In this document: positions 4,421 to 26,174 of the stretch, in pieces
Numbering within the stretch: the first letter of the stretch is position 1
Layout of the letters: each line of letters opens with the position of its first letter
Virus record (IMG/VR): IMGVR_UViG_3300027969_000050
Coordinates: 64,001 to 128,000 of that record
DNA from: a virus
Strand: one strand, 5' to 3'
DNA: 64,000 bases
Notes under the pieces: generated by a model
Database searches by the model: none
Told to the model about the DNA's origin: nothing
What the model saw: only the letters and a program-made list of their open reading frames with translations
Position numbers and translations under genes: made by a program

Positions 4421-6259
4421 CTAAGAGGGATCCTCGACGGGACTAGCCTCATCAGGCTCAAAGGTCCTTTGATTGAACAGCCCCTCGTTCTCAACGTGAG
4501 AACTTGAATCGCCTCCGCACAAAGGACAGTTCCATTGGCGATACTCCGCAGGGGGACAATTGCGACTACGACCGTGATGCATTTTCTCGTTCCAGCCGGA
4601 GGTCTTCTCATCACTGCCGCCATTAATTTTGTGGTACATCGAGTTGGCCCAAGAGCGACCAGCATCGCCACCCCAGAGAAGCCAAGCGGTCTTCCACGGA
4701 GAGTTGCCCTTCCCTCCATCATCGGGACGAGTCTTGTCATGCCGCTCAAAGAAAGAATGCATCCTCTGAATGTGATCGGAAGTAAGAGGCTTGCCATCAG
4801 CAATCGAATGAGCGCGAGTCACAGTTGCCGACTCAAGTCCGTCTCCAGCCTCCCCTTGATTGACTAGCTCAATACCACGCCGAGCATTAGATCGCGCTCC
4901 TGATGGGGCAACATAGGAAGCTCCAAATTTAAATTCATTGGCTGGCCGATAGCCTTTGCCCGACAAAAATTTTTCAATCGCCGTTGCCTCAACGGCAACA
5001 TCGCCTTGATCGCTTTCGATGTTGTGCTTGCGAAAGAACTCCAAAGGCGAATCATTGAGATCATAGCGAGAAGGCCGAAAGGACTCGGGATGTTCATCCG
5101 GGTTCATGCCAGTCATCTGCTTGATCGAATCCGCCATTTCTAAATGATAACCCTTTTCACGTCCGATGAAAATGGTCTTTGATTTGCCATCATCAAAAAT
5201 CCAGATTGGCCAATCGCCCTCCTCCGGAAAGACTTCGCTGTGATCTCCATGCACATCCTCAACGCCTGTCAGATCGACAACTTGAACGCTCAATGGCGGA
5301 ACCTCATCTTTTGCCCCTCGCTGCATACGATCATTCCAGTCCCGAGGCCAAAGGTCCTCATCATTTAGCTCGTCTTCATTCCAAGCCGATCCCGGCTCCT
5401 CAGGAAGGAGTGTGCGATCTGCAATCGGTATGGTCCCGAGGCTCCTTGGCTCGGTTCCCCTTGGCCGGTCATCAAGCGGATAAGCCCCAGCAATTTCGGT
5501 CTCTCGTTCAACAGCGTTGTTTACGTCTGGCACGGTTTGGCTTGGACCCTTGGGTTTCCTTGTTTCAACTCCATTTTGACCAAGAAGCCTTTGAATCGTG
5601 GGATAGCTGACATTAAACTCGCGTCCAATGGCCCTAAGAGACGCCCCACCTTCGTACATCTCTTTCACCTTGGCTATGGCCTCTGGAGTTTGAAGAGCGG
5701 CTGCCTCCGGAGGAATTTGAGGCCTGAGTTCATTTCCCTCATCGGTAAGAACTCTTCTAACGGTCTCCCCGGCAACTCCAAGCTCGCGTCCAATCTCCTT
5801 TACGGATTTTCCGCCCTCGTACATCTCTTGAACTTCCCTAAGCATTCCTCGAATCTTGTCAGCGTGACCTTTGGTGGGCGGTTGAATGCCACCACCAAAT
5901 TTCATACGCTCGTTCCAGCTCGATTGACGACCCGGCATATAAAACCCTTGTTCGACGCCCCAGCCATCATCGTCAAGTTGAAGCCAATCGAACCGCATAA
6001 AAAATTCTCGGTTCTCGATCTCATTGACAAATAACGTCTTGCCAGTCTGATCGGAGTACGCCTTTAGAGCAAGCATGAATTCGGAACCCAATCCGGATCC
6101 CTTTTCTAAGGCGTGAAGATTGTCAAGATGAACGCTATCCGAATCCTCACGAAGCGCGAACTCGATGTTGCCACTGCGCGTCTCCAATTGAAGCCCCGAA
6201 AATTCGCTGTTAGAAACAACGCCTCCCAATTGCTGGGCTATGAAATCTTGAACCTGCAT
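4421..6259 (-). CDS. Multidomain protein: GNAT-like, 2xHTH, copy of the polyprotein repeat domain, AWxLWGG domain, Zn finger
   Basis: Probable start MQVQDF at 6259; KGSGLGS GNAT-like motif; two EMYEGG.S...IGRE HTH repeats; DWPIWIF...IFIGREKGYHLEM; EFKFGA; TAWLLWGGDAGRSWA; CPLCG. Confidence 0.8.
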   Translation of the reverse strand: MQVQDFIAQQLGGVVSNSEFSGLQLETRSGNIEFALREDSDSVHLDNLHALEKGSGLGSEFMLALKAYSDQTGKTLFVNEIENREFFMRFDWLQLDDDGWGVEQGFYMPGRQSSWNERMKFGGGIQPPTKGHADKIRGMLREVQEMYEGGKSVKEIGRELGVAGETVRRVLTDEGNELRPQIPPEAAALQTPEAIAKVKEMYEGGASLRAIGREFNVSYPTIQRLLGQNGVETRKPKGPSQTVPDVNNAVERETEIAGAYPLDDRPRGTEPRSLGTIPIADRTLLPEEPGSAWNEDELNDEDLWPRDWNDRMQRGAKDEVPPLSVQVVDLTGVEDVHGDHSEVFPEEGDWPIWIFDDGKSKTIFIGREKGYHLEMADSIKQMTGMNPDEHPESFRPSRYDLNDSPLEFFRKHNIESDQGDVAVEATAIEKFLSGKGYRPANEFKFGASYVAPSGARSNARRGIELVNQGEAGDGLESATVTRAHSIADGKPLTSDHIQRMHSFFERHDKTRPDDGGKGNSPWKTAWLLWGGDAGRSWANSMYHKINGGSDEKTSGWNEKMHHGRSRNCPPAEYRQWNCPLCGGDSSSHVENEGLFNQRTFEPDEASPVEDPS

Positions 6260-6333
6260 ATTATTTAACCCCCAGCAAGGGGACCCAACTAAGCAAAAGA
6301 CGGGACTCCTAAAGGGGACCCAAAGGGACCCGC

Positions 6334-6645
6334 TTACATCAAGCCGAGAGTACGACCCGCCGAGAGCCAACCGTGTTCGCACACGCCATCAGCTTCAACG
6401 TAACATCCTTCAGGACAATCCGTCAAGCCCATCGTGTCTTCCAACTCATGAGGAGCATATCCGTATTCAATATCTGATTGAAGTTCCGCCGCCGCATTTG
6501 GAGAAGGTTTCTCGCCTTGGCCGGTGGTGGGCTTAGAACCGGGAGGGCTAGGAATGTGATCGGGATGAACCCAACCGGGCTGCTCACCCTGTTGAGCGAT
6601 CTTCATTTCAGCCAGCATATCTTTAGATGTCGTAAGTTTCTTCAT
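6334..6645 (-). CDS. Hypothetical protein with C-terminal Cys/His cluster
   Basis: CPEGCYVEADGVCEHG; probable start MKKLTT. Confidence 0.65.
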   Translation of the reverse strand: MKKLTTSKDMLAEMKIAQQGEQPGWVHPDHIPSPPGSKPTTGQGEKPSPNAAAELQSDIEYGYAPHELEDTMGLTDCPEGCYVEADGVCEHGWLSAGRTLGLM

Positions 6646-9301: not shown

Positions 9302-10426
9302 ATGGCTTCATCACCGATTCCCAAGGCAGACCAATGGCTCGATCAGAGCATCAAGAACCACGCCGCAGGTAAGCGTGGGATCAACGCTCTGCTCGTCGGC
9401 CTACACGGCACCGGCAAGACGACGTATGTAATGGAGAGGGCAGCAGCCAAGGGTCTGAAAGTCGCCCTGTTCACCTGCTCGATCCTCGACCCGTACACCG
9501 ACTTCGTTGGCGTCCCGTTCCAAGTGATTACCAACGAGGGAACGCCGAGCGAATCGCGCTACCTAGAGAAGGTGCGCCCCAAGGCAGTGGACGAGTGCGA
9601 TCTCATATTCTTCGACGAGATCAACCGCGCCGCTCCGGTCGTCCTGAACGCAATGCTGGAGATCATTCAGTTCGGCACGATCAACGGCGAGAAGCTCCCG
9701 AAGCTGATCGGCTGCTGGGCAGCGATGAACCCGCCTGACGCGGGCTACGACGTGAACCCTCTCGACCCTGCTCTCGTGGATCGCTTCGACACTTTCTACG
9801 AGGTCAAGGCCAAGCCGTCCGTGAAGTTTATGAGCGCGTCAATGCGCCCAGAGATCGCTAAGGCTCTCGTCAAGTGGTGGGAGGGTATGGATCGCTCCAA
9901 GCGAGACAACACCGACTACATCAGCCCTCGCCGTCTGGAAAAGATCGGCATCTACTACGACACCTTCGGCACGTTTGAGGAAGCCCTACCGGCCTCTATG
10001 ACGGTCGAGCGGTCGAAGCTGGCTGACCTGCTCCGTGACGCTGAGAACCAAGGCAAGGGCGTCGCCGCAGCAGCCTCGCAAGGCGGCATCGGTGGGGCGG
10101 CCAACGCCACCCTGACCTACAACCGCGATTGGATCCGCGAGTACCCGTCGGCCACTGTTGCCGTCCTCTCGTCGGCACCGGACGATCTGACCACTCACAA
10201 CGCGGTCGTGGCTTGCTTCGACAAGACCAGCGGGGCGAACCTCGTCAAGGACGACGGCGAGGTACTCAACGCCATCAAGCCGTCGGTGCTGGAGGCCTTC
10301 GTCGCCGGACTGACGCCAGCCAAGGCCAAGACTCTGGCCGAGAACGTCGCTGTGCTGCCGCAGGCAGACCGTGACCGGCTCGCCAGCCTCGTCTCTGTGG
10401 TGGAGGCAGATGCCCAGAAGCGCTAG
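9302..10426 (+). CDS. MoxR-like AAA+ ATPase
   Basis: Walker A GLHGTGKT, Walker B IFFDEINR, sensor AMNP, LDPALVDRF. Confidence 0.88.
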   Translation: MASSPIPKADQWLDQSIKNHAAGKRGINALLVGLHGTGKTTYVMERAAAKGLKVALFTCSILDPYTDFVGVPFQVITNEGTPSESRYLEKVRPKAVDECDLIFFDEINRAAPVVLNAMLEIIQFGTINGEKLPKLIGCWAAMNPPDAGYDVNPLDPALVDRFDTFYEVKAKPSVKFMSASMRPEIAKALVKWWEGMDRSKRDNTDYISPRRLEKIGIYYDTFGTFEEALPASMTVERSKLADLLRDAENQGKGVAAAASQGGIGGAANATLTYNRDWIREYPSATVAVLSSAPDDLTTHNAVVACFDKTSGANLVKDDGEVLNAIKPSVLEAFVAGLTPAKAKTLAENVAVLPQADRDRLASLVSVVEADAQKR

Positions 10427-10467
10427 GGCAGCGGACAGGGCGGGGGGCTTCGGCTCCCCGTCCGGCG

Positions 10468-10492
10468 TTCCGTCCGACACCTCTGGTAGAAT
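10468..10492 (+). promoter_or_regulatory. CCGTCCGA-box promoter, copy 6
   Basis: TTCCGTCCGA-cacctcTGg-TAGAAT, then GGATACATCAACC; preceded by a GC hairpin at about 10441-10460. Confidence 0.8.
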
Positions 10493-10525
10493 GGATACAT
10501 CAACCGCAAGACTTTGGAGATTCTT

Positions 10526-11872
10526 ATGACCACCACCATCACACCTGACCAGCACTACCGCGAAGCGATCAAGTGGATTGACACCGAGGCCTACGCCTAC
10601 TTCGTCACTTCGATCCTGAACCTTGGCAAGCCCAACTGGAACAGCGCGATCCCCACAGCCTGCGTAGGCGTCCCTCAGGACGGCCAGCAGGGTCACGGCA
10701 GCACCAGCGGCTTTGAGTACCACTTTAACCCTCAGTTCGCTCTCAAGCTCCCAGCGTCCCAGCTTGCCTTCGTCGCAGCCCACGAGACGCTCCACATCGT
10801 CCTGAACCACCTCGCCCTGTCGGACAAGTACCCCGACCACTCGCTCTTTAACATCGCCGCCGACTGTGTTATCAACGACTACCTCGCCCAGCAGGGCTTC
10901 GACGTGCCTGAGTGGGTTATGACCGGCGAGAAGCAGGTCGGTTGGAACGCAGCGGATAGCACCGTCAGCGCCGTGTACGCGGCTCTCCAGCACCGTGAGC
11001 GCACCGAAGGCGGCTCTCCAGAAGCGGGAGAGGCCGGAGACACCTCAGGCGGCAGCGCAGGAGACGGCAGCCTCGTGGACACCCACGAGTGGATCCACGA
11101 CGCTACGGCGGAGCAGAAGGCCGCCGCCGAGAAGGCGTCCGGCGATCAGAAGGACGCTGGCAACCTGCCGCAGGAGGTCGAGGATCAGAAGGGCGACGCT
11201 CAAACCGGCAACGGTCACGGCATCAGCGGAGGGGGCGAGGGGCGCGAGTTCTTTAAGGACGGCTCCGTGACGCTCCGCTGGGAGGCTCTGATCCGCCGCA
11301 TCAACCCAGACGCCTACAAGCGTCACGCTCCGGCTCCAAGTTGGCTGCGCCAGCCGCCACGCCTGATCGGGAGCAACTGCCGCCTGCCTGAGTACCCAGA
11401 CGTGAACCGAGACCAGTCCGGCTTCGCAGAGCAGCCCGCTCTCGTCCTCGCTCTGGACACCAGCGGCTCGATCCAAGACGAGGACGCCCGCCGCTTTATC
11501 AACCTCGCTCGCTCGATCCCCCAGAGCAAGGTCAAGCTGTTCCCCATCACGTTCACAACCAAGACGATGGATCTCGATCTCGACAACCCGTACTACGAGG
11601 GAGGCGGCACCGACTTCGGTTGTATCGAGGCCTACATTCAGGCCAGCGTCGTGAGCCAGCTAGGCCACTACCCCAAGGCCGTCGTCGTCATTACAGACGG
11701 GCAGGCTGGCTGGCATCGTGGCCAGCACGTCGAGCCGTCAAACCGCAAGTCGTGGACGTGGCTCTGGACTCACAAGGGTACCTTTAACCGCTACGCCCAC
11801 AACTCCGGCTACGCCGAGGGCGAGACCTGTAACTTCGGAACCGCTGAGGCTCTCAGCGACTACACCAACTAG
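10526..11872 (+). CDS. DUF2201-type metallopeptidase with VWA domain (MoxR partner)
   Basis: HETLH zincin motif, N.AAD..IN, MIDAS LDTSGS, GGGTDF, ITDG. Confidence 0.88.
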   Translation: MTTTITPDQHYREAIKWIDTEAYAYFVTSILNLGKPNWNSAIPTACVGVPQDGQQGHGSTSGFEYHFNPQFALKLPASQLAFVAAHETLHIVLNHLALSDKYPDHSLFNIAADCVINDYLAQQGFDVPEWVMTGEKQVGWNAADSTVSAVYAALQHRERTEGGSPEAGEAGDTSGGSAGDGSLVDTHEWIHDATAEQKAAAEKASGDQKDAGNLPQEVEDQKGDAQTGNGHGISGGGEGREFFKDGSVTLRWEALIRRINPDAYKRHAPAPSWLRQPPRLIGSNCRLPEYPDVNRDQSGFAEQPALVLALDTSGSIQDEDARRFINLARSIPQSKVKLFPITFTTKTMDLDLDNPYYEGGGTDFGCIEAYIQASVVSQLGHYPKAVVVITDGQAGWHRGQHVEPSNRKSWTWLWTHKGTFNRYAHNSGYAEGETCNFGTAEALSDYTN

Positions 11873-17774: not shown

Positions 17775-20700
17775 TCACAAACCGCTTTCTTTCCAGTCGA
17801 ACACGCCTGACGTTCTTCCCAAAGCCAAATTGAGAAGTTTGTCTCGTTCGTTGATCGAAGGATCGCCAATCACCTGACCCATAAGGCTCTCAAGAATTTG
17901 TCCGATCTCTGGGCCTCGAGGAACGCCAGCCTCAATTAAATCTTGGCCGTTGATTGCCAACTGAGAAAGATCAGTCGGCTGCTGCTGCTGGCGCACTTGA
18001 TCCACAAGGCCGCGCTGAACCTCGTACTCGTTGTCATCAAACGCATCTTGCCCTTCGCCCTTCGCCGCTTGATCAGCCCAGCGCAGGTTCAGCAGATCAT
18101 CTGCGTGCGGCTCGACCCGATTTAAAAATTTTCTTGCGCCCTTCTCCGAGTCAAACGGGGCAAACATATGGTGCTTTACGAGGTCCGAAACCCGATCAGT
18201 CCTGTCCTTCGGGTACCTCAAACGGGTCATTGCGTCCCTAGTCATTTCCTCACCGACGAGTTCGTGTTGCTGACCTATTGTGCTTCCGTCAGGCAGGCGC
18301 TTCTGGTAGTAATGGTTTGTTCCTCGCTCTGGATTCACCCAAGCGGATGCGGGCTTGCCAATATCGTGGAGCAAACCGGCCAAACGGGCATCTGGGTCAT
18401 CAGTTTTCTGACTGATTCGGTCAAGCACGTCAAGCATATGCTCGCCAAGTTCTAAAGCGTGGTGCGGATTGTTCTGGTCGTAGCCGAACGTTGCATCGAC
18501 CTCAGGCAAAATATATTTAAGTACGCCGCTGTCGTGGGCCAAACGGATGGCGCCGACTGGGTCGTCCGAAGAAAAAATTTTATCCAGCTCTGCTTGCACT
18601 CTTTCGGCTGGGAGATGTTGGAGGCTTGCTGCCGCCTCAGCCATTTGGGCAATCGTTCCCTCGTCAGGGTGAAGGCCATGCCGACCCTTAGCCACAAGCG
18701 CCCTAGCAACCCTGAGCGGATCCTCGCTTAGCGACTGGTCGTGGATTGTTCTTAGTCGCCCACCTGCGATGTCCTCAGCGCCATTGTGCGGATCAATAAG
18801 TTCGCCCGTTCCTAGATTGACGGCCATCGCATTCGCTGTGAAGTCACGCCTCAAAAGATCTTCTTCAGGCGAAAGGGTGTGGTCGGCATCAACAGAAAAA
18901 TCCGTGTGCTTGTCGCCAGTTGACTGTTCGTGGCGAGGCAGCGCGATCTCGACCTCCTCACCGCCCTGCTTGTAACGAAAGACGCCAAAATCTTTTCCTG
19001 TGTAATCAATGTCTCCACCCAGTGGAGCTAAAACCGAATCAATATTTTCTTTTGGAATACCAGAGACCATGAGGTCAATGTCCTTCGGGGTCTTGCCCAT
19101 GATCGTGTCCCGGACCGCGCCTCCAACTGCGTAAACCTGCCCACCAGCAGCCATAAGCGCTTCAACAACGGGCTGAATAACAGGATTGCTTGCGACAATT
19201 TGCCTTACCGACTGTCCCACATTGTCCTCAGCGGCTCCGAAGTGAAACTCGTCTCCGCCCTGACCTCGCGCCCTTCCACGGAGGCCTCCGCCCGGTTGTA
19301 GGTCCGGCTGACCCAAGGCGCGATTGATCATTTCCACCTGATCGGGGGTTGGGTTTCCATAAAAACTGATCTTCTGATCCTCTCTTGGCGGACCCGAGGC
19401 GTGACTATTCGGGGGCCAAGTTACTCGACCACTGAGAAAGGTTCCTTCCTGAAGGGCTTTCATCCAGAAAGTGATTGCGCTGGCGCCATCCCCATTCAAA
19501 AATTTATTTCTGAATTCGGAATCCTGCGAGAGCATCTCGTAGTGATAGCCACCGGGCGGTCCAAAATAAACGGCGTTGTCCTCCGGGAGATAGAACCAAG
19601 GGGCGTCTAGTTCAGGACTCTTGTGAACTTCGTTGGGCTGGAACTTGATGTAAACGACTTTTGGAGGATTCAGTTCGTCAAATGCCCCGAAACGAAAATC
19701 TTCTTCTTGCTCATCCAGAACCTCATCCGCAGGAAAAATATTTCTTAGGGCGTCGTTGACTCCCGGAGCCGGTTCCGTCAGACCTTGATTGTCGGAGTTT
19801 GGAAACGAATCTTCCCAACTAAAATTACCTGAATTTTGCCAATACTCGCCTCTGCAAGGATCGCCCGCCGCAATCAAATTTTCTCCAACGTTCTCAGAGA
19901 GTCCCATAGGACGACCCACCCTTGGAATATCAAACTCGTTTATAAGGTCCTCGTGATACTGACCGCGAAGGCCAACGTAAAGCGCATTGGCGGAAGGCCA
20001 ATAGATAAACGGAATTCGGTTTTCGTGGTAGTCCATTCCTTTCCTATTGTGTTCTTCATTCTGAGATATGAAAACCGTGACGCCTTGCCTAGTTCTATAG
20101 GTGCCAGCGGCTCCGAAACGGAAGCCCTCATCTTCTTGAGCCGGATCAGAAAAAATATTTATTAGCGCGTCGTTGAGTCCTGCTTCTGGTTCGGTGCCTT
20201 CATCGTTGAACCACTGAAGGGAGTCGTAGCTTGGTGGAATAAAACTTCCGTCACCCGGAACGCGGCGCCAATACTCGCCGTGTGTGTCAGGCCCAAAACC
20301 GCCGCGTAAATCGAAATCGGCTTCCGTCCAAGCCCCCCGAATGTCGAATTCTTCTACAAGGTCGTCGTGATACTGGCCAAAGACGCCAACATAGAGCGCG
20401 TTATTGACAGGGCAATAAATAAATGGCGCCCTGTCCTTGTTGAAAACCCTATGTTCATCTGGATCTTGTGATATCAAAACATCGGTGCCAAACTCAGTGG
20501 CCGCCCCGAAATGAAAGTCTTCAGGGCTTTCGCTTTGCCTCAAATCATCTAGATCAGCAAGCGGATAGTCGGGCAAACCAAGCGCTTCGCAGATGGCTGG
20601 AGCCAATGCCGCCGCCTCTGGGTTATTGGGATCAACAAAGTCGGGCATCAGGCGGTCAAACCTCGTCCAAAAAGAAAATCTTGGCGCGTCCTCGAGTCCG

Positions 20701-23700
20701 GCCTCCCTAAGAGCTTTTTCAATGATCACATGATGGATGTCGGGAACCGAGCCAATCCAAATTTGTCCCTGCTCAGGCAAAACAATTAGGGAGTAGCCTC
20801 CAAGCTCATCTCCTTCCCTAGGAATAATTATTCCTTTGTTCGCACGGCCCGTGCCGACAACTCGACCATCATCATCAAGCCAAACGGGAGTTAATTCTGT
20901 CGAGGATCCAAAGTGGAATTCTGAGGCTCCTCCGCCAACAAGGCCATTCAAAGCAGTAATCATTTCCGCTTGGACGCTTTCGGGGACTCGGCTGCCATAA
21001 AACACCAAGTCATTTGGCGGCGAGAACCTTCCAAAGAAATCATAAGACCCGTACTGATTGACGACGCCTCTAGGAAGCTTATTTGTCATTTCGTTATGAA
21101 AGCCGTCTTCCCTTCCAATAGCAATGCTCCATCCATCGTGCCGCGTCGCGTCAGGGTTCATCTCGAGATAGCGCCGTTCTTCTTCGGCTGGGACGCCGAA
21201 CCGCTCTTCGATGTTTATGTCTAGGGTTCCTTCGTCCCAAGCAACAACAGGGTAAAGCTTGTCCATACCTGCACTCGGATAAGGGGTACTCTCCAAATAT
21301 TCTCCGTGGCTTGGATAATCGGGATCCGCCTTGGCGCCCCTGAGGTCAAGCAGCTCGACATGGCTTAAGATGGCTCGAGATTTTTTCTTTGCGCCCTCAT
21401 CATCTCCTTGGCCTTCTTCGCTAAGATTTTTTAATTCTGAGATGTCGGTTGGCTCTTCAGGAATGATCATTGGTCCGCCCATTGATTTGGGGCAAGGACC
21501 GGGCTTGTGATTGAAGCCGCATTCCTCACAGGCACCAAATTTTAAATCCTCTTCGTCAAGCTCAACACGCACTTGTTCGCTCTTACGACGGAACTTATCA
21601 AGCACCTTTTGGATGCGCGAAGTTGACTTTTTTCCTCCAGAGAGAAAATCGGAGTTCCGGATACCACTTTCATTTTCATTTTCGAACGAATTCACCCAGT
21701 TTCTAAGGATATTTGCGAAGATCGGGGCGTCAAGTTCATCATCTTTGGCAAATGCGTTTGCCTGACTATCGGCAGGTTGGGCAGGTTGCGTATCAGAGAA
21801 GGAAAAGTCAGGATCCCCAAGGAAATGATCAACAATTCCCTCGCCTCCTTGCGGATCAAACGCCTCCCAGCCTGTTCCAAAGGGCTTGTTGTCTGCTCCG
21901 AACTTAAAATCTTCTTGCTCCCACTGCTGGCTAATGTCAAGATTGTCGATAAAGGCCTTGATATTAGAGGGGATCGGCTGTTCATCATAAGGCGGGCGCA
22001 TCCAATCAACCGGACCAAATTGACTTTTCCTTCCTTCCCACGCAGCTCCGTCGATTGCGCCCAAAGTCAAATGCGAGTCCCAAGTGGTTCCAACTTGAAC
22101 CGTGTTGCTTTTTGGCCAATAAATAATCGGACAGTCGCCTCGAGGATCGGGCGCACCGCCGCCGGTTGATTCAAAGACGACCTTTGGCTCCTCTGAAGCG
22201 CCAAATTTAAAATCTTTGGGCGTTCCAAAGAACTCATCAAGCTTTGCTTCGCAAGCAGCCTTCTCTGATTCGGATAAATTTTCCAGACCAGACCCCCACA
22301 GTTCGCCATCGTATCGGCACTGAGCAACAAAAGTAAGATCTTTGTTTACATCCACCGCTCTGTTAGGAATGTCTGAGTGGTAGGCCCCTTCAGCTCCGAT
22401 ATACATATTGATTAGGCTTGCTGGCGCCCATTCGGAACTTTGGTCCAACAAGGCATAAATATAAACTGGGTGGGACACGCCACCACCCTCATCATCATGT
22501 TCAGATCCGTAGTCGGATTCCTTGATTAGATCGATGACATTGATCTCTGGTTGCTCTGCCGCTCCAAACTTAAACCCGGGAGTGGTACCCAAAAATTCAT
22601 CCAGACTATTTTGAATGTCTTCACGAAGCATGGGATCACCATCAGCAATAAAATCGCGTCCATGAGGATAACGCAGAAGAGGCAAAGTTGAGATATCCAC
22701 CCCATCAATCTCTGCTCGTTTTGCGACCTCACGGAATTTCGGATCCCCCATAATTTCTTCGTGATAGCCATTTGGCCTACCGACGAAAACTTCGTATTTT
22801 ATATCGCCCTCCCAAGGATGTCCTACCGGAACAATTATTATTGGCCAATCGGTTCCACCGGTATCGATTCTTTCGTTGTGGTCTCCGTGAAGGTCACGGA
22901 CTCCAGTCAGGTCAACCACCTCAACAAAATTAGGAAGCGAGCCGCCTTCGTCTTCTAAGACCGAACCGAACTTAAACCCGGGATCCGTACCCAAAAACTC
23001 GTCCAGATCCTTTTGGATGTTTTCCGGGACGTATTGGCGTCCAGACGGGTAGCGACTGTAGCCGACCTCTTCGTACCACTTCCGTGAAAAGACATCAGAA
23101 CCGGACATGCGTTTTTCGAACTCGGGATCCTCTTCTATTTCAGTATGGAAGCCGTTTTCTCTGCCAACAAAGACGGTCCAGCGATTTCCTACTGGAACAA
23201 TAATTATTGGCCAGTCAAAGGATCTAGGTTGCTTGCTTGGTTCGTCCCCGACTTCAGAAATAAAAGCGTCGTGGCCACCGAAGCGATCATCCATTTCGGT
23301 TAGGTCGATGATCTCGACATCCTCATTAGAACCGAATTTAAAATCGTCTTGAACTCCGAGGGCCGACTTTACCGCTGAATCAAATTCGACTGTCCATCCA
23401 TCGGGGTACCCCCGGCCAGCGGAGCCATACTCATGCTCGCTGCCCAAAAGCATCCACTGGGTAATTGCATCGTTTACACGAAATAAAGCAACTTGATCAC
23501 CGTAAAAACGATCAACATACCTTGCTCCTCCGGGAGAGGCGATGCCACGCGCAGTAAGTACCGTCATCACATCTTCATGGAAATCATCATAACTTCCAAT
23601 AAAAGCCCTTGTCTCCGTCGGGCCTAAGATTGCTATTCCGGGTCGATCTCCGGTTCCATGCGAACCGTTAAGATTTGCGTCGTTGGCGTCTGAGGTATCA

Positions 23701-24248
23701 AGGATTTCTACTGAGACTGGGACGGTCTCGATCTGTGAGCGCAACCTGCCATCAGAACCAAATTTAAAATCTTCTTGTGCGGGACCCATTACTGGCGCCA
23801 CTCGCTGTAATTCTGACTTGACTGCTGATTCAAATTCGGGAGGTGGACGTGGAATTTCCACAGTGTCCGTCCAATCACTGGAATTGTTCCCGTACCAATC
23901 CTCAATAGTTCCATCAGGATAAACCCGGAAACAAACAACCGGGCCAAGATCGGAAGAGAAAGCGCGAAAGTCTCCCGGCTGTTGGGTCAGAATTCCCTGA
24001 GCTTCCAATATGGCAATTAAGTCATAATGAAATGCTTGATATTCGCCAATGAAAACCTTTATCTCCGTCGGGGCAAAGATCGCTACTCCGGGGCGGTCTC
24101 CGGTGTCGTGCGTTTGCCACGAGTCATAATGCCTTGACTCTGAGGTGTCGAGAACCTCAACTGAAATTGGAAGCGAGTAATTCAGAACCCGCGTCACACC
24201 GTCAATGTTGGTCCAGCCGTCATTGTCAAATTCGGTTAGGTCGTCCAC
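17775..24248 (-). CDS. 2157-aa polyprotein-like protein: 12 F-x-F-G-delimited modules and a C-terminal CCA-adding enzyme with HD domain
   Basis: C-terminal ~487 aa has class II NTase motifs VGGAVRD..DID, RRDFTANAMA, EDPLR and ERVQAE, plus HD motif LLHDIGK; 12 [FL][KHR]FG[AS] motifs upstream. Confidence 0.9.
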   Translation of the reverse strand: MDDLTEFDNDGWTNIDGVTRVLNYSLPISVEVLDTSESRHYDSWQTHDTGDRPGVAIFAPTEIKVFIGEYQAFHYDLIAILEAQGILTQQPGDFRAFSSDLGPVVCFRVYPDGTIEDWYGNNSSDWTDTVEIPRPPPEFESAVKSELQRVAPVMGPAQEDFKFGSDGRLRSQIETVPVSVEILDTSDANDANLNGSHGTGDRPGIAILGPTETRAFIGSYDDFHEDVMTVLTARGIASPGGARYVDRFYGDQVALFRVNDAITQWMLLGSEHEYGSAGRGYPDGWTVEFDSAVKSALGVQDDFKFGSNEDVEIIDLTEMDDRFGGHDAFISEVGDEPSKQPRSFDWPIIIVPVGNRWTVFVGRENGFHTEIEEDPEFEKRMSGSDVFSRKWYEEVGYSRYPSGRQYVPENIQKDLDEFLGTDPGFKFGSVLEDEGGSLPNFVEVVDLTGVRDLHGDHNERIDTGGTDWPIIIVPVGHPWEGDIKYEVFVGRPNGYHEEIMGDPKFREVAKRAEIDGVDISTLPLLRYPHGRDFIADGDPMLREDIQNSLDEFLGTTPGFKFGAAEQPEINVIDLIKESDYGSEHDDEGGGVSHPVYIYALLDQSSEWAPASLINMYIGAEGAYHSDIPNRAVDVNKDLTFVAQCRYDGELWGSGLENLSESEKAACEAKLDEFFGTPKDFKFGASEEPKVVFESTGGGAPDPRGDCPIIYWPKSNTVQVGTTWDSHLTLGAIDGAAWEGRKSQFGPVDWMRPPYDEQPIPSNIKAFIDNLDISQQWEQEDFKFGADNKPFGTGWEAFDPQGGEGIVDHFLGDPDFSFSDTQPAQPADSQANAFAKDDELDAPIFANILRNWVNSFENENESGIRNSDFLSGGKKSTSRIQKVLDKFRRKSEQVRVELDEEDLKFGACEECGFNHKPGPCPKSMGGPMIIPEEPTDISELKNLSEEGQGDDEGAKKKSRAILSHVELLDLRGAKADPDYPSHGEYLESTPYPSAGMDKLYPVVAWDEGTLDINIEERFGVPAEEERRYLEMNPDATRHDGWSIAIGREDGFHNEMTNKLPRGVVNQYGSYDFFGRFSPPNDLVFYGSRVPESVQAEMITALNGLVGGGASEFHFGSSTELTPVWLDDDGRVVGTGRANKGIIIPREGDELGGYSLIVLPEQGQIWIGSVPDIHHVIIEKALREAGLEDAPRFSFWTRFDRLMPDFVDPNNPEAAALAPAICEALGLPDYPLADLDDLRQSESPEDFHFGAATEFGTDVLISQDPDEHRVFNKDRAPFIYCPVNNALYVGVFGQYHDDLVEEFDIRGAWTEADFDLRGGFGPDTHGEYWRRVPGDGSFIPPSYDSLQWFNDEGTEPEAGLNDALINIFSDPAQEDEGFRFGAAGTYRTRQGVTVFISQNEEHNRKGMDYHENRIPFIYWPSANALYVGLRGQYHEDLINEFDIPRVGRPMGLSENVGENLIAAGDPCRGEYWQNSGNFSWEDSFPNSDNQGLTEPAPGVNDALRNIFPADEVLDEQEEDFRFGAFDELNPPKVVYIKFQPNEVHKSPELDAPWFYLPEDNAVYFGPPGGYHYEMLSQDSEFRNKFLNGDGASAITFWMKALQEGTFLSGRVTWPPNSHASGPPREDQKISFYGNPTPDQVEMINRALGQPDLQPGGGLRGRARGQGGDEFHFGAAEDNVGQSVRQIVASNPVIQPVVEALMAAGGQVYAVGGAVRDTIMGKTPKDIDLMVSGIPKENIDSVLAPLGGDIDYTGKDFGVFRYKQGGEEVEIALPRHEQSTGDKHTDFSVDADHTLSPEEDLLRRDFTANAMAVNLGTGELIDPHNGAEDIAGGRLRTIHDQSLSEDPLRVARALVAKGRHGLHPDEGTIAQMAEAAASLQHLPAERVQAELDKIFSSDDPVGAIRLAHDSGVLKYILPEVDATFGYDQNNPHHALELGEHMLDVLDRISQKTDDPDARLAGLLHDIGKPASAWVNPERGTNHYYQKRLPDGSTIGQQHELVGEEMTRDAMTRLRYPKDRTDRVSDLVKHHMFAPFDSEKGARKFLNRVEPHADDLLNLRWADQAAKGEGQDAFDDNEYEVQRGLVDQVRQQQQPTDLSQLAINGQDLIEAGVPRGPEIGQILESLMGQVIGDPSINERDKLLNLALGRTSGVFDWKESGL

Positions 24249-24722: not shown

Positions 24723-26174
24723 CTAGCGCGGCCCCATAAACGGATCGCTGATGTCTGGTCTAGGGGCAAGCTGACTGGACGGCAAAATGCACTCTACGAA
24801 GTGAGGCTGAAGCTCGCCTGACTGATGAAGCGGGAAGTGAACAGTCACCCAGTCTAGGGTGGGGTCGTAAGAAAAAACTTTTCCAACCGAGTTAGGGCCA
24901 ACCAGAACCATCTCGCCGGTACCGTTCCCCGGCGCCCCACCAACAGCAGCGCCATACTCGCCATTCCAATTCTGAGCATCTCGTGGCGGAAGGAGCTGAA
25001 CGACATCCTCCTGATTAAATATTTTTTCTCCCGCCGCAGTCCGAACATGCGTGTAGGTTTTTCCAAGAACCCTTGACAAGGCACCCGGCATATGAATATT
25101 TCGCCCGCCAGTTTGGTCATCGGCCTTGGGTTGAGAGAACGGAAGCTCTAGTTGTTCTCCGGGCTGTCCGGGCTGATCTGGGATAACGTCAAACTGGTCG
25201 CTAGGGTTAGCCATAGGATTAGTGCTTTGTCCCTGACCGCGACTTGGAGACGGCTTGGGAACCTGAGCAGGCTGGCCCGTAAGCTGCTCTGGAGCGCCAT
25301 TAGGCTTGCCAGAGGGGGCGGAAGGGGCAGACGGGGCGGAAGGTCCTGCGGGACCCATAGAAGGTCCAGTGGGCGAGGTAGGAGCCGAGGGGGCGCCCGG
25401 AGCAGCGCCACCCGACCCTCCGCCATCGATCTCTTCCTTATCAACGCCCTTCGGAACACCACCGCCTGTTCCGACCTCATTTGTTGGGCCGCCTCCACCG
25501 GGAGCCTGACCGACGCCCTTATCGAACAACTGACCCTGCTGTACAGGCTGGGTTTTCTTCATTCCACGAGGCATCTGACCGTGGATATTGGGGTCGTAAT
25601 CGTCAATTGGCGTAGCCATTGCCTGCCACATAGTTGCGATAACGTGAGAGCAAGAGCGGCCTTCTAGATACTTCCACTTACGGGTACGTTGAAATGCGTA
25701 CTGATCCCAAGGACACTCGCAAGTCCACTGAGTAATCGCCATTGAGTTTGGGTCGTCACGACTGATCGTACACTCGTACTCGCCGTGATCGCCAGTGACA
25801 TTTGAGACGACGACATTCCAGCCATTCCGGAGGATCGTCACCTGACCATTATTTTTTAGACGGACGGCTTTGGCTTTGACGTCATCCCAAGTTGCCGTTC
25901 TAGAATTATCGAAAAGGGTGAAATGCGCCCTGCGATAACCAAATGGCTTTAGATCCTCGTAAACGATCTGCTCAGCAAGATGGCGATCATCATGGGATCC
26001 GCCCTCAGACATAATTACTGCCTGCCCTGCCGGACCTTCCCACCAGCTAACCCTAGTTGAGCCAAGGGTTTGGAACTTAGGCGGCAGGTCTTTTGGCTGA
26101 GAACCTATTGCTAGGCCGACATAATCTTCGAACCAAGTCTTTTCTTCTTGGGCGGTAAGGACGCTCCAAGACAT
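24723..26174 (-). CDS. SWIM-type Zn-finger protein with Pro/Gly-rich linker
   Basis: WTCECPW.QY..QR....LEGRSCSH. Confidence 0.7.
   Translation of the reverse strand: MSWSVLTAQEEKTWFEDYVGLAIGSQPKDLPPKFQTLGSTRVSWWEGPAGQAVIMSEGGSHDDRHLAEQIVYEDLKPFGYRRAHFTLFDNSRTATWDDVKAKAVRLKNNGQVTILRNGWNVVVSNVTGDHGEYECTISRDDPNSMAITQWTCECPWDQYAFQRTRKWKYLEGRSCSHVIATMWQAMATPIDDYDPNIHGQMPRGMKKTQPVQQGQLFDKGVGQAPGGGGPTNEVGTGGGVPKGVDKEEIDGGGSGGAAPGAPSAPTSPTGPSMGPAGPSAPSAPSAPSGKPNGAPEQLTGQPAQVPKPSPSRGQGQSTNPMANPSDQFDVIPDQPGQPGEQLELPFSQPKADDQTGGRNIHMPGALSRVLGKTYTHVRTAAGEKIFNQEDVVQLLPPRDAQNWNGEYGAAVGGAPGNGTGEMVLVGPNSVGKVFSYDPTLDWVTVHFPLHQSGELQPHFVECILPSSQLAPRPDISDPFMGPR

Follow-up and report, generated by a model that had tools for sequence, protein, structure and literature searches.

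What does a phage do with eleven diverged copies of one domain in a single chain, and why are they joined to a tRNA-repair enzyme? The locus that raises this question lies in a 64,000-nucleotide stretch of viral DNA (IMG/VR record IMGVR_UViG_3300027969_000050, positions 64,001 to 128,000), referred to here as ‘the window’; coordinates are those of the window unless another source is named. One open reading frame (ORF), 17775-24248 (-), encodes a protein of 2157 amino acids (aa) that contains 11 homologous modules of 100-165 aa each, followed by an intact CCA-adding enzyme. The stretch from 19236 to 24248 (-) corresponds to residues 1-1671. We name the ~130-residue domain that the modules have in common the ‘His-core domain’. 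The 11 units are paralogous copies of one previously undescribed small alpha/beta domain, which has undergone massive amplification in the giant, multi-module proteins of an uncultured clade of phages with genomes of ~140-160 kb, distantly related to Bixzunavirus (cluster C actinophages). Tentatively, and with somewhat less than even confidence, we read the protein as a polyvalent phage polyprotein that is probably processed, and its copies of the domain as effector modules, directed at the host and diversifying.

Splitting the chain at a recurring F-[KHR]-F-G motif gives twelve units. A first-pass annotation of this DNA, made from the sequence alone, had described a common His-containing core in 11 of the twelve, and alignment with MAFFT bears this out: the core is present in all units except that at aa 785-968, and the 13-residue examples given for it are all found. 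The G and H of a G-x5-H motif are invariant in the 11 modules, as is the terminal F-x-F-G, and two Pro residues upstream of G-x5-H are at least 90% conserved. The units also align significantly. When a hidden Markov model (HMM) built from ten units is used to score the eleventh, scores of 9.7-46.6 bits are obtained; shuffled sequences (300 per module) reach at most 11.1 bits, and each module scores above all of its own shuffles. With the last 30 aa removed (the C-terminal helix and FxFG), scores are 8.4-41.5 bits versus 6.2 bits or less for shuffles. The paralogous units are 12-45% identical to one another. Within three pairs, H1/H2, H3/H4 and H9/H10, each module has the other as its best partner (local scores of 222-248, compared with 135 or less for other pairs), which points to recent tandem duplication. 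The same neighbours (the last pair numbered 10/11) had been picked out in the annotation as most alike, and the repeated tandem duplication that it proposed is thus supported. Two flanking features that it added, an upstream V(E)hhD...H and a downstream Arg (in G-R-[YF]-[DP]), occur in most copies but are only moderately conserved across the family.

Numbered from the N-terminus, and all on the minus strand, the modules are H1 (23757..24248, aa 1-164), which ends in DFKFG; H2 (23331..23756, aa 165-306), whose closest paralogue is H1; H3 (22965..23330, aa 307-428); H4 (22563..22964, aa 429-562), closest to H3; H5 (22200..22562, aa 563-683); and H6 (21897..22199, aa 684-784), the shortest copy. 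Then comes the central non-His unit (21345..21896, aa 785-968). It is followed by H7 (20907..21344, aa 969-1114), which has a long insert and has diverged more than any other copy; H8 (20505..20906, aa 1115-1248); H9 (20112..20504, aa 1249-1379); H10 (19686..20111, aa 1380-1521), closest to H9; and H11 (19236..19685, aa 1522-1671), which ends in EFHFG directly before the CCA enzyme (17775..19235, aa 1672-2157). A twelfth copy, outside the array, was found when the whole genome of 140,266 bp was scanned with the HMM (E 9e-13). Its position is 4913..5320 (-), inside another multi-module ORF (4421-6382), hereafter the second; H3 and H4 are the modules that it resembles most, and its final residues, EFKFG, precede AS. 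The central unit contains the junctions DFSFS and DLKFG and a C-x2-C-x3-H-x5-C knuckle, and nothing else in the N-terminal region is as well conserved among relatives: its first 34 aa are 85-100% identical, versus 44% for a His module compared with the same distant clade. Used as a query, it found no relative in IMG/VR.

The domain is not confined to this genome. The annotation had proposed building an HMM from the units and searching phage proteins with it, and such searches proved productive, yielding hundreds of instances. When 1.84 billion representative proteins were searched with a 20-module profile and no word index, 122 of them matched at E<=1e-3, and 44 matched at E<=1e-10. With few exceptions, these family proteins are giant (up to 4942 aa), metagenomic, and contain 2-14 matched stretches. 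A local search with the first HMM gave 432 instances in 124 proteins, 431 of which could be aligned at the core, and a broader HMM of 42 sequences gave 637 instances, with a median of 4 per protein and a median coverage of 51% of protein length. Up to 18 copies occur in one ORF of a fetched locus from a neighbouring phage, and the flanking genes there hold 3-4 more. All ten family proteins that were looked up are of metagenomic origin, from contigs of up to 158 kb. Four close metagenomic homologues of the giant ORF (1295-1982 aa) carry 5-8 His modules each, and three of the four have the same C-terminal CCA enzyme; the giant proteins of relatives also contain GNAT, HNH, PcfJ, cREC and YunG domains. 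No match was found by tblastn in 50,697 INPHARED phage genomes, nor was the His-core domain found in the 29.7-kb portal-to-capsid locus of the Bixzunavirus phage Grungle, and a word-based search for stand-alone small homologues returned none. The portal protein encoded in the window is 41% identical to portals of Bixzunavirus (cluster C mycobacteriophages).

Family-wide, the core has the consensus G-x-R-R-P-[FV]-[IV]-Y-x-P-x2-N-T-[VI]-Y-[VI]-G-P-P-G-x-[YH]-H-x-[DE]-[LI], followed by G-R-Y-D, G, W and then a helix with A-I-x2-A-L. The His is invariant in all 431 core-aligned instances; the Gly six residues before it is present in 411 of these, and the Pro nineteen residues before it in 384. Outside of the core, the sequence is extremely variable, with a mean column identity of 12-17%. 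In silico, the modules fold independently. AlphaFold2 was run twice, each time on another module and from another alignment (H3, model m2749c3223d55; H9, model m834871d8ddd6), and gave predicted local distance difference test (pLDDT) scores of 78.5 and 77.0 and predicted template modelling (pTM) scores of 0.75 and 0.71; the five models of the second run have pLDDT of 73.6-77.0. In both models the chain runs from an N-terminal strand through a beta-hairpin and a Gly-rich loop into a helix starting at the invariant His, and it finishes in a C-terminal helix. The predicted hairpin comprises the ‘P-hydrophobic run’ and the ‘h-h-h-G’ strand of the core. The second model has two extra strands after the His-helix. 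Hairpin and His-helix form the most confidently predicted region (blocks of 86-93). In the second model the pLDDT of the acidic linker and FxFG tail is 47-52, so that this end of the module seems to be flexible and not part of the core.

None of this resembles a known family. The N-terminal 1671 aa match nothing in Pfam (E<=1), PHROGs (E<=0.1) or NCBIfam, and 42 single domains searched against Pfam at E<=10 gave no match. PDB sequences, Foldseek and VIA-align likewise gave none; in the ESM Atlas there were unnamed clusters only, and a 10% crAss muzzle tag at sub-threshold recognition, which is not a match. The predicted structures, which the annotation had suggested comparing by Foldseek, matched no known fold in these searches. 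Readings of the core as a beta-grasp, HPr-like, HIGH-motif nucleotidyltransferase or His-Me finger domain were considered, and are unsupported by the fold and sequence searches. Nor is there a Pfam match that would make the domain a PBECR/BECR RNase (whole protein at E<=1; 42 domains at E<=10). Those RNases have a His-bearing N-terminal helix followed by 4-5 strands with a conserved Ser/Thr, whereas in the His-core models the His-helix comes after a beta-hairpin.

The second conserved element of the array is the junction between units. Every unit of the giant ORF, two non-His units included, is closed by [DE]-[DE]-[FW]-[KHR]-F-G-[AS]; in all there are 12 canonical [FL]-[KHR]-F-G-[AS] junctions and one variant (DFSFS). 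Among the other real genes of the 140-kb genome, the motif occurs only in the second multi-module ORF, and there once. The codons of the junction differ from copy to copy, which argues that selection acts on the peptide, not on the DNA; a DNA-level repeat as the source of the conservation is rejected on these grounds. In 26-40 family proteins the motif occurs 3-16 times per protein, and reversed controls are almost without matches. Of 214 junctions across the family, 53 follow a detected His domain and 161 do not, so the motif marks the boundaries of many module types. It also ends proteins. It lies within the last 14 residues in 25 of 124 proteins, compared with 2.8% of random 14-mers, and 13 of the 124 stop exactly at [FW]-x-F; those listed for a C-terminal motif are P0010, P0017, P0027, P0040, P0049, P0053, P0077, P0079, P0090, P0105, P0116 and P0122. 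This placement suggests that the natural C-terminus of a unit is ...acidic-[FW]-x-F, and if the chain is cut, the cut may fall between the Phe and the Gly. The C-terminus of the single-stranded DNA-binding protein SSB is an acidic, aromatic-tipped docking tail, and the junction motif, as the tip of a last unit, recalls such tails.

The C-terminal 486 aa of the giant protein match all four Pfam domains of a CCA-adding tRNA nucleotidyltransferase (the PolyA_pol head, the RNA-binding domain, HD and tRNA_NucTran2_2), as well as phrog_2244; the best NCBIfam model is that of the actinobacterial CCA enzyme. In its domains this part is like known class II nucleotidyltransferase-HD CCA enzymes, and it differs from them in having 1671 aa of unrelated modules in front. 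Two more distant phages have the CCA enzyme as a separate gene (locus L007, 15432-17237, 601 aa; locus L008, 12971-14926, 651 aa), situated directly after, or three genes after, a giant His-domain protein. The CCA linkage is conserved, and the fusion is specific to the clade of the window; the stand-alone genes suggest that free enzyme is the normal state. Taken together, the conservation of the junction, its C-terminal placement and the separate CCA gene in relatives favour either a processed polyprotein or a common C-terminal docking tag. Another short motif is [PV]-F-D-W-x-[EQ], with a single copy per protein. It stands at the extreme C-terminus of the giant ORF (17775-17800, -) and of P0004, where the chains end ...FDWKESGL and ...FDWEESGL; in P0005 and P0006 it comes right after the last junction, ahead of the CCA domain.

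The annotation had likened the diversity of the modules to that seen in an arms race. Diversification is real, but it takes the form of fast divergence together with duplication, loss and exchange of whole modules, rather than of detectable gene-wide positive selection. Between the window and the related locus L003, orthologous modules have ratios of non-synonymous to synonymous substitution rates (dN/dS) of 0.04-0.34, and purifying selection thus maintains them as functional coding sequence; constraint on H5 and H7 is looser than on the CCA domain, for which the ratio is 0.04. Values of dS range from 0.09 to 0.61 among modules of one gene pair, a spread that points to mosaic recombination. 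Compared with the distant clade of locus L001, module H8 has a dN of 0.60 and the fused CCA domain a dN of 0.076, a difference of about 8-fold. Gain and loss of modules among relatives coincides exactly with the junction motif, some relatives carry other, inserted domains, and near-identical phages differ in content and in copy number (5 to 11 copies). All modules are acidic, with isoelectric points (pI) of 4.0-5.1 and net charges of -6 to -19. Close relatives have one more shuffled unit, a non-His domain in which His, Trp and Asp are abundant; it lies at ~12980-14040 of L003 (P0003 aa 992-1346) and in locus L005 (P0006 aa 985-1130), inside the place of module H10 or ahead of the CCA domain.

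How might such modules work? They are homologous and acidic, purifying selection acts on them, they evolve much faster than the CCA domain does, and gain and loss affect entire units. On our preferred reading of them as effectors, the junctions would be cut, or would be used as C-terminal tags, and about a dozen proteins of 12-17 kDa plus a free CCA enzyme would then act separately in the infected cell. Each copy would be an effector in which the invariant His binds or processes a common chemical group, our leading guess being one of phosphate, nucleotide or RNA-end type. In the predicted structure the His sits at the N-terminus of a helix that comes after the beta-hairpin and the loop rich in Gly; Arg, Tyr, Asp and Trp, all semi-conserved, flank it. 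What each copy targets would be determined by the rest of its sequence, which is variable. That the His marks a functional site, as the annotation had supposed, is supported by its invariance in 431 of 431 instances in 124 proteins; the picture of an active site is weakened in that this is the only invariant polar residue in the family.

Other observations weigh against this reading as well. The acid two positions after the His (D or E) is present in just 67% of instances, which, like a single invariant polar residue, would be unusual for a classical enzyme. No orthologous module has a dN/dS above 1. The failure of the family, fold and structure searches leaves no biochemical handle. With regard to processing, no peptidase domain that could carry it out was detected by Pfam inside the giant protein, there is no HExxH in the ORF, and the head protease, scaffold-like and major capsid proteins are encoded ~60 kb away and are without the junction motif. 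The head protease is consequently rejected as the obvious cutter. Autoproteolysis of the intein/Hint type, or of the Nup98/ZU5 type, was also considered and rejected: many units begin with Ala, and so offer no nucleophile.

Could the chain cut itself? The His-core domain might be a cis-acting peptidase that cleaves the junction at its own C-terminus, and in this phage each His module does directly precede a junction motif, the His is invariant, and no other protease domain was found in the protein. We consider this very improbable. Junctions also follow non-His modules (at aa 818 and 905 of the giant ORF, at WN[ED][RK]M-x2-G in the second ORF, and in 161 of 214 cases family-wide), many His-rich family proteins are entirely without the motif, and the His is accompanied by no other invariant residue of a catalytic kind (Ser, Cys, Asp or Glu); these observations largely refute cis-autoproteolysis. 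A weightier alternative, unlikely in our estimation but deserving of attention, is that the modules are not catalytic at all. They could be acidic inhibitors, decoys or immunity-like binders, each for a different host nuclease or defence protein (e.g. enzymes that cut tRNA and cause damage for the fused CCA enzyme to repair), with the His, Gly and Pro serving structural roles. The strong acidity of every module, the extreme variability outside of the core, the single invariant polar residue, and the recurrent link to a tRNA-repair enzyme, fused here and encoded by a neighbouring gene in L007 and L008, all agree with this. Acidity may be proteome-wide, however, since the CCA domain is acidic, too (pI 4.85), and absolute invariance of one His over 431 instances, at ~12% overall identity, would be atypical of binders without a shared ligand. 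The searches reported no similarity to known immunity or inhibitor folds, which does not exclude such a role.

The chain might instead remain uncleaved, as a beads-on-a-string structural or packaging protein such as a capsid-internal filler or an ejection protein, in which the domain is a spacer and [FW]-x-F-G an inter-domain or docking element. The location of the giant gene lends this some colour. It closes a same-strand block that begins with terminase and portal, the 483-aa ORF upstream of it has a domain in common with Bixzunavirus gp84, which is encoded between portal and capsid genes, and His-core domains cover about half of the giant proteins. But the block also includes non-structural genes, for a metallophosphoesterase and a deoxynucleoside monophosphate (dNMP) kinase, and the head genes (capsid, scaffold and protease) are elsewhere, ~60 kb from the giant gene. 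A copy number that varies from 5 to 11 among near-identical phages fits a fixed structural role poorly, repetition of a spacer leaves the invariant His unexplained, and a CCA enzyme locked in a 240-kDa chain clashes with its stand-alone form in relatives. We therefore regard a structural role as quite improbable, and return to effector modules as the best reading.

If the chain is cut, we can offer only guesses at the protease: one is the HK97-type head protease (genome 23.6-26.1 kb), the other a protein with HExxH (10514-11872). The former is a head maturation protease domain (phrog_18299) that forms the N-terminal third of an 840-aa protein encoded outside the window (genome C1 23610-26132; L012 2610-5132); the remainder of that protein is a long, acidic C-terminal extension rich in Cys clusters, the N-terminal part of which is homologous to Bixzunavirus gp85. 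The latter, a 452-aa protein of DUF2201_N type on the plus strand with an intact HExxH, is a possible processing peptidase; nothing ties it to the giant protein. It belongs to a pair of ORFs (9302-11872, +) in a G+C-rich stretch (0.60-0.63 versus ~0.50 elsewhere), and its 374-aa partner matches, in length and position, the MoxR-type AAA_5 ATPase of relatives. At the loci of relatives the pair is annotated AAA_5 and DUF2201_N, and Ku is encoded nearby.

Two further neighbours deserve description. The 483-aa ORF (24723-26174, -) lies directly upstream of the giant gene, and the domain that it has in common with gp84, a protein of 1278 aa, is ~115 aa long (phrog_30974/2940, with a weak SWIM-like match). 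The second multi-module ORF (4421-6382, -) encodes 653 aa with two helix-turn-helix (HTH) domains and one His-core copy, the twelfth. It begins with a unit that has a GNAT-like G-x-G motif, a further unit follows the His-core copy, and there is a Cys cluster at the C-terminus. The HTH part has a weak NCBIfam match, below cut-off, to the HTH of the CRISPR repeat-binding protein Cbp1 (E 2e-16). Besides its single EFKFG-AS, this protein has a second type of junction, W-N-[ED]-[RK]-M-x2-G, in three copies.

What would follow if the effector reading is correct? A large protein family, with hundreds of instances, would have been wholly missed by current databases, and some phages would be spending 5-6 kb of coding capacity per genome on one domain. 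A new fold with a single invariant His would be added to the modules of phage host takeover or counter-defence, and each diverged copy would be a natural specificity variant, ready for biochemical study. In tailed phages, conserved junction motifs would be seen to let a single reading frame supply a whole array of paralogous effectors, physically coupled to repair of tRNA 3'-ends. Even if the function proves mundane, the family profile would annotate a large block of the ‘dark matter’ of giant phage proteins. In its fullest form the proposal is that a large uncultured phage clade expresses batteries of 5-18 paralogous, fast-evolving effectors as polyproteins, cut at acidic-[FW]-x-F/G-[AS], each unit having a new-fold His site and an acidic, aromatic-tipped tag. 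This would combine a polyubiquitin-like strategy with a new effector family, neither of them described for tailed phages. We consider the combination doubtful, though by no means fanciful.

Among known systems, one comparison is with the small phage anti-defence proteins Tad1, Tad2, Acb2, Acb1 and AcrIII-1, which are sponges and signal-degrading enzymes. These are proteins of ~100-150 aa, encoded by stand-alone genes and diversified in arms races, and some anti-defence proteins rely on a conserved His (AcrIII-1 and the 2H enzymes). The annotation had named nucleotide sponges or enzymes of this kind as examples of what the modules might be. The His-core modules are like them in small size and in diversification; the searches reported no similarity in sequence or fold, and the sponges and enzymes are encoded by single genes, whereas here arrays of 5-18 copies occupy one chain.

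Polyproteins are rare in tailed phages. As in a processed polyprotein, a conserved junction motif stands at every unit boundary of the giant ORF, and, as in viral polyproteins and polyubiquitin, small units are joined head-to-tail, with a common end motif finishing in Gly and a small residue. After the last unit the chain continues into a functional protein that is not related to the units, the CCA enzyme, much as in ubiquitin-ribosomal protein fusions. The copies of polyubiquitin are identical, however, whereas the units here are well diverged from one another, and their predicted fold has no ubiquitin-like match.

Closest of all are the polyvalent proteins, the giant proteins of phages and conjugative elements in which disparate effector domains are combined (Iyer, Burroughs, Anand, de Souza and Aravind 2017; PMC5512222). 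These include GNAT domains, domains in multiple copies (12 of ART in one protein, and several of PBECR, which are extensively mosaic), and 40 ‘LPD’ domains that are uncharacterised (PMC5512222). The cREC domain is described elsewhere, and, with the CCA enzyme, falls within a theme of RNA-end repair in jumbo phages (PMC7824862). The resemblance lies in a giant multi-domain chain of duplicated and rearranged effector domains, and in the GNAT, HNH, PcfJ and cREC domains of relatives. Several disparate domains are present in the chain studied here (11 His-core modules, a Cys/His unit, and a CCA nucleotidyltransferase with HD domain); a zincin-like metallopeptidase domain, frequent in polyvalent proteins as a means of self-processing, is not. 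Packaging of such a protein with the DNA would be suggested by a place among virion genes, or by fusion to MuF or portal; the giant gene stands in one same-strand block with terminase and portal, non-structural genes intervene, and the genes for capsid, scaffold and protease are ~60 kb off. The His-core domain differs in that it matches no Pfam model, those of the LPD and PBECR families included, and in the conserved short motif between units, a feature that we did not find described in PMC5512222. The His-core domain, then, is a new family within a known kind of system, the polyvalent proteins of phages, and one that comes with an unusual, polyprotein-like junction.

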